Source of the DNA: an uncultured Acidobacteriota bacterium | GTDB taxonomy: Bacteria > Acidobacteriota > Thermoanaerobaculia > UBA5066 > Gp7-AA6 | DNA length: 64,000 bases | Direction: 5' to 3' | Assembly: GCA_963823185.1 (NCBI GenBank) | Contig: CAWGKP010000016.1 | Span: 25,070 to 89,069 of the forward strand | Shown here: piece by piece, positions 8,084 through 22,697 of the stretch | Layout: every line of letters begins with the position of its first letter | How positions within the stretch are numbered: position 1 is the first letter of the stretch | Notes under the pieces: model-generated | What the model was told of the DNA's origin: nothing | The model's input: only the letters and a program-made list of their open reading frames with translations | The model's database searches: none | Translations under genes and position numbers: made by a program

Positions 8084-8160
8084 CGGGGCGTAGCGCAGCC
8101 TGGTAGCGCACTCGGTTCGGGACCGAGTGGTCGGAGGTTCAAATCCTCTCGCCCCGACCA
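8084..8160 (+). tRNA. tRNA-Pro (anticodon CGG)
   Basis: Manual cloverleaf: acceptor CGGGGCG/CGCCCCG, U8, D-stem GCGC/GCGC, anticodon stem CTCGG/CCGAG with loop TTCGGGA, T-arm GGAGG-TTCAAAT-CCTCT, discriminator A, encoded CCA. Confidence 0.9.
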
Positions 8161-8215
8161 ATCCTCATCAACGAGTCACGTTGCTACGCTCCGCTCATTC
8201 CTGCGTCTACCTCAC

Positions 8216-9109
8216 TCAGACCGTAGCTGTTCCGTAGCTGTTCTCGCCGCCAAAGCACTTCCGCAGCGCCTCGCGGGCGTCGTCGGTGGTCGGGATGCCG
8301 TAGCGATCGAAGACTCTGCGAGTCCGGTGGCCTGTGATCTCCATCGCGACGACCGCAGGGACCCCTCGCCGGGTGAGATTCCGCACCGCTGAGCGGCGCA
8401 GATCGTGAAAGGGCAGTCCGGGGACTTCGGCGGCCTCGCAGGCGCTCCGCCACGACTTCCGCCAATCTGCCAGCGGCTCGCCGGCGCGATGGAACACCAG
8501 GGGAACCTGAAGGGTACGAGCCGCCTTCCGGCGTCGAATCGCGTCCCACAGCTCACCCTCGAGCGGAAGCACGCGCCCTCGGCCGTTCTTCGAGTCCTGA
8601 AGGCGCGCCTCCCGGGCTTTCTCATCAACGTTCTCCCAGGTCAGACCTTCGACCTCGGAGCGCTAGTCGACCGGTACGCGAACAGGGCAGCATCACCCCT
8701 CGGCTGCCGGGAGGCTTCCGTAGATCTTCGAGAACGTCTCGTCCTCCACAAAGCCCGTCCGCCGGTTGTTCGGCCGGATCAGCTCGATGTAGGGCACGCG
8801 ATCCGCCCCGATCCGCTTCTGCTTTACCGCGAGCTTGTAGGCCGCCCGCAGCACCTCGAGGTACCAGTCAGTCGTTGCCTCCGCCTTCGGTTCCTTAGCG
8901 TCAAGCCATGCGCGCCGAATCGAGTTCACCACGTCCGCCGTGAGTTCCACCGCACGCAGGTGCCCGATCGCCTCCCGCACCGCCTTCGCGTGCGCCTCGA
9001 AGGACGCCATCGACTTGGCGCCGCGCGTCTGCAGGTCGACCTTGTACGAATAGAGCAGCTCGCCCACGGTGACGCGCTCTGCGTCGGGGCCGCGATAGCT
9101 CCCCGCCAC
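8216..9109 (-). pseudogene. Tyrosine-type phage integrase, decayed. N-terminal SAM-like part (8693..9109) and catalytic C-terminal part (8216..8572) are in different frames, and the length is truncated.
   Basis: The C-terminal ORF has HxxR...Y catalytic residues (ITGHRTRRVFDRYGI). The N-terminal ORF carries an integrase core-binding-like segment. An 11-bp tandem duplication (ccgtagctgtt x2) sits at the 3' end. It lies immediately 3' of tRNA-Pro. Confidence 0.7.
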
Positions 9110-9465
9110 GATCTCCTTGCGCGAGCTCCTTTTCCCGGAGCGATTCCAGATCGTCGGGGACGAGCGAGACGCTCAATCGGCTGCTTCCGCCGTTCCGCAC
9201 GATTCCTGCGCGGGAGTGACAACGCCTCCGCGGAATGACGCGGGCTGCCTGTCCCGTCGTACAGGCTGAGATCACTGGTAGGCCTCGCCCGATTTTGGTC
9301 TCGTCGACCAGTAGTTTCCCTCCCCGGATAGCCCTATCTTGGGGGCTGTTTCGTTTCCCGATAGAACGAAAGAGGAGAGAGATGCCGTAGCGGGATAAGC
9401 GCGTCTGATCGCCGGATCGGGAAGTCCGTGCGCCGGATCCGTTCGGTTGGGCGCTCATCCTCATC

Positions 9466-20907: not shown

Positions 20908-20926
20908 CGGCCGGAACGGAATGGCC

Positions 20927-22456
20927 CTACTCCGCGCCGCTTCCGGCGGCCGCGCGCAGATCGAGCGGCCGGCGCCCGGCGCACCGTCCGGCGACCGAGG
21001 CGCGATTGACCTTGCCCCGCGACGTGCGCGGGATCTCGTCCAGGAGAAACCATCGCAGCGGAATCTGGTGGCGCGCGAGGTGTCGGCTCGCCCACTCGAG
21101 GAGCCCCCGGAGCGAGGCGTCGTCCGCGTCCTTCAACACGACCGCGACGGCGACGTCTTCGCCGTGGAGCGATCCTCGACGGCGAAAGCGCAGACGTCGA
21201 GTGTCGCCGGGTAGCGCTCGATGACCGCGTCCACGTCGCCCGGGTACACCTTCATCCCGCCTTTGTTGATTTCTTCGCGCTCACGGCCCCGGAGGTACAG
21301 CCACCCGCGCGGGTCGAGAAGACCGATGTCGCCGGTCGAAAACCAGCCGTCGGAAACCACCTCGCGCGTGCGGTCCTCGCGCTCCAGATAGCCGCGCATG
21401 AGCGCCGCCGTCTGGACCCAGACGTGCCCCGATTCTCCCGGCGCGCATGCTCGGCCGCTCCCTCCGTCGGCGCCGGCGCCCCCGCCCTGAGGACCCGGAT
21501 CTCGGAGCCCCACGGACGCCGACGAGGCCGTCTTCGGGGACCACGTCCTCGAGTGAAGAGCCCGCGAGCCAGCTCGCCGTTTCGGTGATGCCGTAGGCGT
21601 TCCAGACCTGCCTGGTTCCGGCCCAATTCTGTATGTCTTTCCAGAGGGCCGCCGAGAGCGGGGCGGACCCGCAGAACACGCGCTCGAGCGAGCGCCGCCG
21701 CGGGCGGCGCGGCCGTGCGGAGAGCGACCCTCCAGAGGGACGGGACCGACGAGAGAAAGGTGATCTCGTGCGGTCGATGAGGGCGCCCAATCTGATCAGA
21801 TGTCCGAGCGGAACGGGGGGAGGATGTAGAGGTCCTGTCCGGAGAGCCAGGGGAAGAGGGAGTTGCAGATCAACCCGTGGCCGAAGTGCGTCGGCAGCAG
21901 GCACAGCGTCCTCCGGTAAGCGCTCGAGGCCGAGCGATTTCTCGAGGCTCTTCCAGCGCGCCGCGAGCGAGCGGCGCGTGTGCACGACGCCCTTCGGGTG
22001 GCCCGTCGTTCCCGAGGTGAAGAGGATCAGCGCGTCCTCCCCGGAGGATTGCGGCTCCCACCCGAGCGGGTTCGCGCTCCCGGGGCCGGCCACGGGCTCC
22101 GCGACGTCCACCGATTCGGTCCCCCGCGCCGCGAGTTTCCGGGCGAGTTCCTCCGGCGGCGGTCCGAGCCAGGCCGAGAATCGGGGCGCGGCCGAGGCGG
22201 CGAGGGTTTCAACCTCGAACGCCGTCAGCCTCGAATCGATCGGGGCCGCGGCAGCGCCCCGGCTCCAGATCGCGAGGAGCTCGACGAAGAACTCCAGGTT
22301 GTTCCCGAAGTGGAGGAACACGCGATCACGTGGACCGAGCCCGCGGGCGCGATAGAAGGCGGCACGAGCGGAAACGCGCTCCAGGATCTCCGGGGGTTCC
22401 CAACGCCGTCCGGTCAGAGGCTCGTCGAGGGCGCCCGGCTTCCAATCGAATCGCAT
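20927..22456 (-). pseudogene. AMP-dependent synthetase/ligase (acyl-CoA or acyl-ACP ligase), split over 3 frames
   Basis: AMP-binding motif LILFTSGTTGHPKGVVHTRRSL in 21281..22456. C-terminal segments GWFSTGDIG...DPRGWLYLRGREREEINKGGMKVYPGDVDAV (21133..21513) and IPRTSRGKVNR (20927..21139) are in other frames. Confidence 0.65.
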
Positions 22457-22649
22457 CGTGCCCTGCCCGAAGGCAACCGAGGGTAACGGCCGGGTCCGCG
22501 GCTGTCAATGAAGGGATGAGACGAGGGAGCCGGAGGGCGGAGCCAAGACGGAGCTGTTCTCCAGACAGCCGGCGTGGTCGGCGGAGCTCGCGAGCGGCCG
22601 ATTCACGAGCAATCGCGCTCAGGCGATGCCAGGGATGACCGGTCTCGGC

Positions 22650-22697
22650 CGGTTCGGGCCCGAGTGGTCGGAGGTTCAAATCCTCTCGCCTCGAGCA
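22650..22697 (+). repeat. Partial direct repeat of the tRNA-Pro 3' half (anticodon stem to T-arm; last 7 nt diverge)
   Basis: cggttcgggcccgagtggtcggaggttcaaatcctctcgcc matches tRNA-Pro 8111-8151 with 1 mismatch. Confidence 0.7.

Follow-up and report, generated by a model that had tools for sequence, protein, structure and literature searches.

We analyzed a 64,000-nt stretch of DNA (hereafter, the window; contig CAWGKP010000016.1 of an uncultured Acidobacteriota bacterium) in which an intact tRNA-Pro(CGG) gene is followed by three displaced copies of its own 3′ end (fragments 2–4). With a probability that we put at about 0.85, this arrangement arose by tandem accretion of integrative elements at tRNA-Pro, the integrases of which decayed or were deleted, leaving remnants that resemble cis-mobilizable elements (CIMEs). 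A preliminary description of this DNA had proposed repeated integration at a regenerated bacterial attachment site (attB) followed by integrase loss. Comparison with relatives (loci designated L and a number) supports the proposal, but independent integration is demonstrated for segment 1 (island 1) only; for segments 2 and 3 we infer it, as we do the sequence in which the elements arrived and whatever mobility they have today.

The four tRNA-Pro 3′ ends were recognized by independent methods that agree with one another. The tRNA gene was found by both ARAGORN and the Rfam tRNA model, and its sequence is identical in approximately 20 related Thermoanaerobaculia loci, where it stands each time 3′ of the same Ser/Thr kinase. 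A repeat finder placed the copies of the window in one direct-repeat family with four members (D3; 8113, 12936, 19363, and 22650). The window was searched with the last 32 nt of the tRNA, allowing up to three mismatches, and 100 dinucleotide-preserving shuffles served as the control. The results showed matches only at 8129, 12952, 19379, and 22666, all on the plus strand, and the 100 shuffles yielded no match at all. Exactly four occurrences of the 15-mer GGTTCAAATCCTCTC were counted, and a profile hidden Markov model (HMM) built from the fragments of the window and its relatives returned the four known sites (E 1e-14 to 1e-19) with no further match in 64 kb. The coordinates of the copies and their spacings (4823, 6427, and 3287 nt) are as first described; the range of zero to two mismatches given at that time holds for fragment 3 but is slightly low for fragments 2 and 4 (see the table). 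Both of the latter start at nucleotide 30 of the tRNA, and this left boundary of the 48-nt identity block is common to the fragments of the window and those of relatives. Fragment 3 starts on the T-arm side, and the 17 nt on its 5′ side are unrelated to the tRNA.

The limited extent of fragment 3, which covers only the T arm and the acceptor strand, i.e. the more conserved parts of a tRNA, is the one weak point at which one might argue for matching by chance, for an origin of the repeats in other tRNA genes, or for duplication during assembly. We consider such an origin extremely improbable. No shuffled sequence matched, fragments 2 and 4 extend over the anticodon stem-loop of tRNA-Pro(CGG), and all copies lie in direct orientation 3′ of tRNA-Pro. 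The other tRNAs of the window (Cys, Leu, and Phe) scored only E 0.5–1.2 against the fragment profile. In addition, each copy has unique flanks and differs from the others, and the pattern recurs in independent assemblies of relatives.

Island 1 (8161–12983) combines all the features by which Islander recognizes an island: a tRNA gene with a same-strand fragment (45/48 identical), a tyrosine integrase (here a pseudogene) at the att end, and an empty site in a relative. The decayed integrase beside the tRNA had been noticed before, and the frame 9130–8255 (−) proved to be 43% identical over 317 aa to the 390-aa integrase of locus L015 (E 6e-63, tblastn), with a match to the Pfam domain Phage_integrase (PF00589) at E 4.5e-12. 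It contains in-frame stops near 8692 and 8665 and a short deletion around the first catalytic Arg, and approximately 48 N-terminal residues are missing; 56 nt separate its end from the tRNA. When the L015 integrase was used as a tblastn query, no second integrase-like sequence was detected in the window, and no relatives of the integrase were found in IMG/VR. Remnants of an excisionase or of a primase/helicase were not found in the window either.

The empty site is provided by L081, a 7.1-kb contig from JGI sample 3300045120 that is approximately 95% identical to the window over G6PD, EF-G, and the kinase. In L081, the kinase and an intact tRNA-Pro are followed by the homolog of window 12984 onward, namely the 3′ end of the giant gene of segment 2 with its 78-nt repeats, and exactly 8161–12983 is missing. 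The intact tRNA of L081 stands at the exact position of fragment 2, with the same flank beyond it. Thus, island 1 is a discrete 4823-bp indel bounded by the 48-nt repeat, and the polymorphic unit is the one adjoining the tRNA, as the classical model predicts. The cargo gene of island 1 contains an internal 540-bp duplication (11570–12088 versus 12109–12628, 92% identical) and is 70% identical, in inverted orientation, to the giant gene of segment 2 (self-BLAST). The majority of the genes in the array are pseudogenes.

Orthologs of the Ser/Thr kinase upstream of the tRNA number in the hundreds and are annotated as Thermoanaerobaculia/Acidobacteriota metagenome-assembled genomes (MAGs). A genome scan with the kinase yielded 23 orthologous loci, and in nearly all of those that extend far enough the kinase is followed by the identical tRNA-Pro(CGG). 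None of the cargo genes of the window was found at the tRNA-Pro locus of these 23 relatives. In support of the proposal, lexA, tRNA-Cys, and tRNA-Leu lie 2.6–5 kb beyond tRNA-Pro in L019, L020, and L011, as compared with 25 kb in the window. The contigs L001, L003, L008, L016, L018, L081, and L082 end within a few hundred bases of tRNA-Pro, as assemblies are expected to do at a polymorphic, repeat-bearing site.

Similar arrays are also present in the relatives themselves. Their own tRNA-Pro fragments, 45–48 nt in length and with the same start position in the tRNA, are found in L004, L010, L012, L013, L017, L124, and L125. The integrase of L015 is intact and is accompanied by a protein with an excisionase domain, which scores above the cut-off of TIGR01764, and by a primase/helicase-like protein of 581 aa. 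L004 contains an apparently frameshifted integrase gene next to the tRNA and a 118-aa C-terminal remnant after the second fragment, L013 retains only the final 39 codons after the third fragment, with 92% identity to the L015 integrase, and in L012, L010, and L124, only approximately 30–70 nt of the integrase-proximal end is left, with stubs of approximately 30–45 nt that directly follow the tRNA or a fragment. The sequence ATCCTCTCAnnCACTTGC, which is conserved right after the CCA in many copies, corresponds to the integrase stop codon and last codons. At least two integrase lineages, the window type and the L015 type, use the tRNA-Pro site.

Over 18 kb, the MAG loci L013 and L017 share 99.4% identity, which breaks off 12 nt past the third tRNA-Pro fragment (approximately 18303–18315). 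Beyond this point, L013 has the 39-codon integrase stub and a second BNR/Sortilin paralog, whereas L017 has unrelated genes, indicating that recombination at internal fragments has been recent in at least one lineage. We also observed that tRNA-Pro is directly followed, in several divergent relatives (L003, L010, L011, and in part L013 and L014), by a second Ser/Thr kinase-TPR gene (775–873 aa), which has diverged to an extent similar to that of the backbone. In L010 this gene has the tRNA on one side and a fragment on the other, and some att-bounded units therefore appear to be old and vertically inherited.

Segments 2 (12984–19410) and 3 (19411–22697) have direct-orientation tRNA gene fragments at both ends, although fragment 3 is just 31 nt long. 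An integrase of their own was not found in either segment by tblastn with the L015 integrase, and the room between the fragment and the first cargo gene is 85 nt in segment 2 and 64 nt in segment 3. Both have the makeup of a CIME, being flanked by fragments, devoid of integration and transfer genes, and placed in tandem with an island whose integrase is itself inactive. Segment 2 may behave as a unit: its left end abuts the tRNA in L081, and its beta-helix half is att-bounded in L125. A precise empty site for segment 2 or 3 as a whole was not found among the relatives compared.

Segment 2 consists of two parts. The giant secreted protein encoded in segment 2a has homologs in metagenome contigs (the best 68% identical), but none of them lies near tRNA-Pro or a fragment, so that this gene family is not generally tied to the att site. 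A 78-nt tandem repeat at 13079–13758 (8.7 copies, 90% matches, TRF) gives this 1247-aa protein a C-terminal Pro/Thr-rich repeat of 26 residues, and the sister contig L081 terminates within it. Segment 2b is a single-gene beta-helix cassette. The cargo labels used earlier were broadly right, but the motif called CSLREA reads CTLRDA in 17186–19303, and the NCBIfam CSLREA model gave a sub-threshold match only, on the paralog of this gene.

Segment 2b is 81% identical at the nucleotide level to att-bounded cassettes located directly at tRNA-Pro in L125 and L124. In L125, the backbone of which is 82% identical to the window, tRNA-Pro is followed by a 2.7-kb unit, a 48-nt fragment, and then a 3′ stub of a window-type integrase. 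The sole gene of the 2.7-kb unit is a beta-helix gene with 81% identity to window 17081–19379, and the leader of the unit comes directly after the CCA of the tRNA. The P arm upstream of fragment 4 (22536–22649) is 81% identical to the P arm that precedes the fragment of L125. In L124, three or four beta-helix units stand in a row. The same P′ leader that directly follows the CCA in L125 and fragment 4 in the window also starts at 16990, suggesting that a further fragment, now decayed, probably once occupied approximately 16942–16989; no more than weak residual similarity is left there, below statistical detection. With the profile HMM and Smith-Waterman alignment, no extra tRNA-Pro fragment rose above noise near 16942–16989, near 25950, or just before 32282. 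The stretch TCTCGCTCGACCA at approximately 25950 was tried as a candidate and taken as a chance match, lying as it does inside a PqqD-like ORF.

A second beta-helix cassette, with an NHL-repeat insertion, occupies 22698–25930. It is paralogous to 16990–19303 (71–85% identical nucleotides, self-BLAST), with homology that sets in exactly where fragment 4 ends; no terminal tRNA fragment was detected after it. The palindrome AATGATCTCTTTTGATCA is present in the leader of segment 2b (17082–17099), and the same leader palindrome recurs at 22786–22803. In addition to these two positions in the window, the palindrome AATGATCTNTTTTGATCA was found at 3568–3585, 9076–9093, and 11426–11443 of L124 and at 4916–4933 of L125. 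It lies approximately 95 nt past the att core and no more than about 100 nt upstream of every beta-helix/NHL cassette gene, is missing from the other 123 loci fetched, and is not expected by chance in the window. It could be an operator or a binding site for a recombination or regulatory protein.

The paralogy of the cassettes raises the question of how many integrations took place. One or a few may have occurred, after which unequal recombination (RecA- or integrase-mediated) between the 48-nt repeats and their conserved arms on sister chromosomes would have duplicated and reshuffled cassette-plus-fragment units that diverged afterwards; the number of fragments would then exceed the number of independent integrations. 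Such amplification in situ would explain why paralogy begins at the end of fragment 4, why the paralogs of the window (85% alike) are slightly nearer to each other than either is to the copies of L124 and L125 (approximately 81%), why L124 carries cassettes of the same family in a row, and why L013 has two BNR paralogs (80%) flanking a fragment where L017 has one. That island 1 and segment 2 carry related GSDH/DUF1349 genes points in the same direction. On the other hand, the genes of island 1, segment 2a, and segment 3 are non-paralogous and differ in composition, the site has been used by no fewer than two integrase lineages, which are 43% identical and have separate P′ ends, and island 1 is a clean indel containing its own integrase. 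As a full account of the array, amplification in situ is therefore rather unlikely, and it complements repeated integration instead of replacing it; duplication in situ or recombination between repeats probably contributed. It follows that the cargo, previously called unrelated, is so only in part: segments 1, 2a, and 3 do differ, but the two beta-helix cassettes are paralogous and the two GSDH/DUF1349 genes are related.

The cassettes also bring to mind an integron-like platform. At such a working site, single-gene, integrase-less cassettes (leader or promoter, arms, AATGATCTNTTTTGATCA, and a tRNA-derived site of 48 nt) would be exchanged, copied, and discarded through whichever cognate integrase acts in trans. 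The locus would then serve to diversify large secreted beta-helix and beta-propeller surface proteins and would not be a mere graveyard of islands. Att-bounded units with one gene and no integrase do exist in L125 (the 2.7-kb beta-helix unit), L010 (kinase-TPR), L013 and L017 (Kelch, BNR), and segment 2b; both core-adjacent arms are conserved among cassettes, including the palindromic leader motif that is found only there; the fragments of relatives are perfectly conserved; and very close genomes differ exactly at internal fragments. We nevertheless regard a platform of this kind as improbable. Integrase remnants lie directly after fragments inside the arrays of L004, L013, and L010, as expected if each element brought, and then lost, its own integrase. 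Integrases of more than one type occur, many of them as pseudogenes and without a constant placement or direction with respect to a promoter, and the orientation of the cargo is mixed. There is no attC-like hairpin, the L015 integrase scores 31 bits against a cut-off of 220 with the NCBIfam XerA/integron-integrase model, and the leader motif may be just a regulatory site of the beta-helix gene family.

Segment 3 carries a trio of ligase, ACP-like, and GNAT genes, in which the ligase ORF has 391 aa as compared with 510 aa in the intact genes of L122 and L123. L122, a 20-kb contig from the same JGI sample (3300045120) as L081, contains the trio together with fragment 4 (L122 4901–8093 corresponds to window 22697–19442, 95% identical nucleotides). 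On one side, the last base of fragment 4 is also the last base of homology; on the other, the homology ends approximately 32 nt short of fragment 3. Both L122 flanks of the segment are unrelated to anything in the window. A T-arm-like stretch, GGTTTAAATCCACTT, to the left of segment 3 in L122 was considered as a tRNA fragment and was unsupported by Rfam. The trio was also found without any fragment in the more distant genome L123. This occurrence, together with the native-like composition of the segment, suggests that segment 3 is host DNA taken up at the distal end of an element. We rejected the view that it is an ancestral chromosomal flank: it is absent from the loci of 23/23 relatives and moves with fragment 4, and distal-end cargo of an element is thus the better reading.

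The array had been taken to end at 22697, but the variable region continues on the lexA side to 32281. BLASTN homology to L011, L014, L019, and L020 resumes at 32282 in 4/4 cases, with lexA approximately 81% identical at the amino acid level; the variable interval is therefore 8161–32281, approximately 10 kb longer than noted. The genes of 25931–32281 are absent from the tRNA-Pro to lexA interval of relatives, save for a weak inverted FtsX match in L002. A comparison of composition by segment, as had been recommended, showed that island 1, segment 2, and 22698–25930 are compositionally foreign (GC 0.62–0.64, dinucleotide δ* 97–187), whereas segment 3 and 25931–32281 are similar to the backbone chunks (GC 0.69 ± 0.01, δ* 33–46 ± 15). 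No phage structural or packaging Pfam domains were found in 8–32 kb, and the region does not qualify as a prophage.

Table. Features of the tRNA-Pro to lexA interval of the window and the basis of their assignment
Feature	Position	Strand	Basis or remark
tRNA-Pro(CGG), intact, CCA encoded	8084–8160	+	ARAGORN; Rfam tRNA, 65.6 bits
att core, 48-nt identity block, tRNA nucleotide 30 (anticodon stem 5′ strand) to CCA	8113–8160	+	Reference copy of repeat family D3
Tyrosine integrase pseudogene	8216–9172	−	tblastn with intact L015 integrase; Pfam PF00589
Secreted GSDH/Ig/2× DUF1349 gene, pseudogene over at least four reading frames	9466–12646	+	ORFs; Pfam
Fragment 2, displaced tRNA-Pro 3′ end, attR of island 1	12936–12983	+	3/48 mismatches to the tRNA
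Segment 2a, 1247-aa secreted GSDH/PKD/DUF1349 protein with PT-rich C-terminal tail	13069–16812	−	Pfam; translation
Possible fifth att fragment, heavily decayed	16942–16989	+	Position only
Segment 2b, single-gene beta-helix cassette ('CSLREA-type', CTLRDA motif), leader and gene 17186–19303	16990–19379	+	Pfam Beta_helix/NosD
Fragment 3, 31 nt: T arm, acceptor strand, CCA	19380–19410	+	1/31 mismatch; profile HMM E 5e-14
Segment 3 cargo overall, backbone-like composition	19442–22649	−	Pfam; comparison with L122
GNAT	19475–20614/20683	−	Pfam
ACP-like	20611–20907	−	Pfam
AMP-ligase, truncated	21281–22456	−	Pfam
Fragment 4, tRNA-Pro 3′ end (48 nt), final letters CGAGCA	22650–22697	+	3/48 mismatches
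Second beta-helix cassette, NHL-repeat and beta-helix gene, at least three ORFs, frameshifts	22698–25930	+	Self-BLAST; Pfam
Rest of the variable interval, no recognizable fragment boundary, backbone-like composition	25931–32281		Pfam
Conserved backbone: lexA upstream region, lexA (32402–33079), tRNA-Cys, tRNA-Leu	32282–33379	+	BLASTN

The mechanism that we propose for tandem accretion would run as follows. The 3′ 48 nt of tRNA-Pro(CGG) would be the attachment site of a small tyrosine-integrase element family in a Thermoanaerobaculia lineage. A circular element would recombine with the tRNA, the sequence of the element rebuilding the 3′ half of the tRNA (attL) and the old 3′ half being displaced to the far end (attR). 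The regenerated tRNA would be used again, so that the newest element would be nearest to it and older ones farther away; the tRNA at 8084–8160 is thus both attL of the newest element and attB for the next. In the window, this process would have given the observed order tRNA, island 1, fragment 2, segment 2, fragment 3, segment 3, fragment 4, and second beta-helix cassette, beyond which older, unbounded variable DNA would extend to lexA at 32282. Integrases would be lost by point mutation first and by deletion afterwards, leaving att-flanked, integrase-less remnants. Recombination between repeats, site-specific or homologous, would also have duplicated, deleted, and moved units, and would account for the paralogous cassettes, the difference between L013 and L017, and the context of segment 3 in the sister population.

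Several points weigh against tandem accretion in this form. The integrase trace is confined to island 1, and segments 2 and 3 have neither room for an integrase nor a detectable stub. The left boundary of fragment 3 differs from that of the other fragments, and the variable region has no terminal fragment at its end. Given its composition and the fragment-free trio of L123, segment 3 may be native DNA captured by an element; its flanks in the sister population are unlike those in the window, and a strict model of insertion at the tRNA only fails to predict the distal side. The greater likeness of the two cassettes within the window suggests duplication in situ or gene conversion. Finally, some frameshifts could be long-read sequencing errors. 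This source is possible for the frameshifts but unlikely for the integrase, since its defects are substitutions to stop codons and the backbone genes are intact.

Some further features were observed in the window. A set of genes resembling those for ribosomally synthesized and post-translationally modified peptides occupies 25927–30724, within the variable interval. It begins with a PqqD-like gene that has an apparent frameshift near 26105 and further comprises genes for an NTP_transf_5 nucleotidyltransferase, for a transglutaminase-like protein, and for an HPr-kinase-like protein fused to radical-SAM; FtsX/MacB and Usp (universal stress protein) genes come after it. Two copies of a 39-nt direct repeat (92% identical) lie 33 kb apart, at 28672–28710 and 61900–61938, one of them in the HPr-kinase/radical-SAM ORF. 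A GC-rich hairpin repeat of approximately 57 nt (CGCGGCGCGAGGCTCCTCC...GGAGACTCCTCGCGCCGCG) was found downstream of tRNA-linked genes at 34218–34274 and 37788–37846, and also directly 3′ of tRNA-Pro in L019 (6003–6137). It has no Rfam match and may be a REP-like (repetitive extragenic palindromic) or terminator element of the lineage. The 92-nt tRNA-Arg(GCG) reported by ARAGORN at 58357–58448 is probably false, as Rfam gave no tRNA at E ≤ 1 and the position lies inside a high-GC3 ORF (57402–58568).

The locus is a clean sequence-level case of tRNA-seeded island growth in Acidobacteriota, an abundant, largely uncultured soil phylum with poorly described mobile elements. It defines the final 48 nt of tRNA-Pro(CGG) as an att site, identifies two or more integrase lineages cognate to it, and delimits a hypervariable tRNA-lexA interval prone to assembly breaks. 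The finding is of use for the annotation of these MAGs, for reading strain-level variation in secreted surface proteins, and possibly as a site-specific integration tool for the group. In the literature searched, we found no such elements described for this uncultured Thermoanaerobaculia lineage.

One of the closest known systems is the tandem island of the Islander/TIGER concept; Islander formalized the combination of an intact tRNA gene, a displaced fragment, and an integrase, and it reports 125 tandems of at least two islands and a class with an 'anticodon centred attP' (PMC4383910; the class is attributed there to Williams 2002). Shared features are the intact tRNA at one end, direct 3′ fragments, an integrase beside the regenerated tRNA, an identity block starting from the anticodon stem-loop, and the newest element nearest to the tRNA. 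Islander requires an integrase in every member, however, whereas here only one of at least three units has one, and that is a pseudogene; the T-arm-side boundary of fragment 3 is a further difference. In Streptococcus thermophilus, the elements ICESt1 and ICESt3 illustrate decay to CIMEs and accretion into a regenerated site to form tandems (PMC5704250, which cites Pavlovic 2004 and Bellanger 2011 for this process). The window has in common with them att-flanked remnants without integration or transfer genes and the entry of the next element into the regenerated site. The likeness is one of gene content, and it differs in that no conjugation or mobilization genes were seen in any element here; even L015, the most complete relative, has only the integrase, the excisionase-domain protein, and the primase/helicase-like protein in addition to cargo.

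In the tycheposons of Prochlorococcus, nothing but partial tRNAs separates one element from the next, the deeper parts of the island contain broken integrases and isolated partial tRNAs, and in the proposed model newcomers push older elements distally (bioRxiv 10.1101/2020.12.28.424599). Compared by gene content, L015 may be likened to these small elements, which insert at tRNAs and combine a tyrosine recombinase with a replication module and with cargo, in that it has an integrase, an excisionase-domain protein, and a primase/helicase-like protein, the latter two of which have no counterpart in the window, and the tycheposon model invokes pick-up of host DNA at the element's distal end, as we propose for segment 3. 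The two systems differ in phylum and habitat (soil Acidobacteriota in our case) and in cargo, which here consists mostly of very large secreted repeat proteins. With integrons, the locus shares rows of mostly single-gene, integrase-less units with a short recombination site after each, beside a tyrosine recombinase gene. It lacks the defining IntI, attI, and attC: the sites are direct repeats of tRNA 3′ halves and not attC hairpins, the integrase is neither IntI nor a gene with a fixed place in a platform, the units face in both directions, and the arrays themselves contain stubs of integrases. The growth of tandem islands from a tRNA as a route of bacterial genome expansion is already known, and the understanding of island formation is unchanged by our results; what is new here is the host lineage, the specific att site with its integrases, and the prevalence of single-gene units for large secreted repeat proteins.

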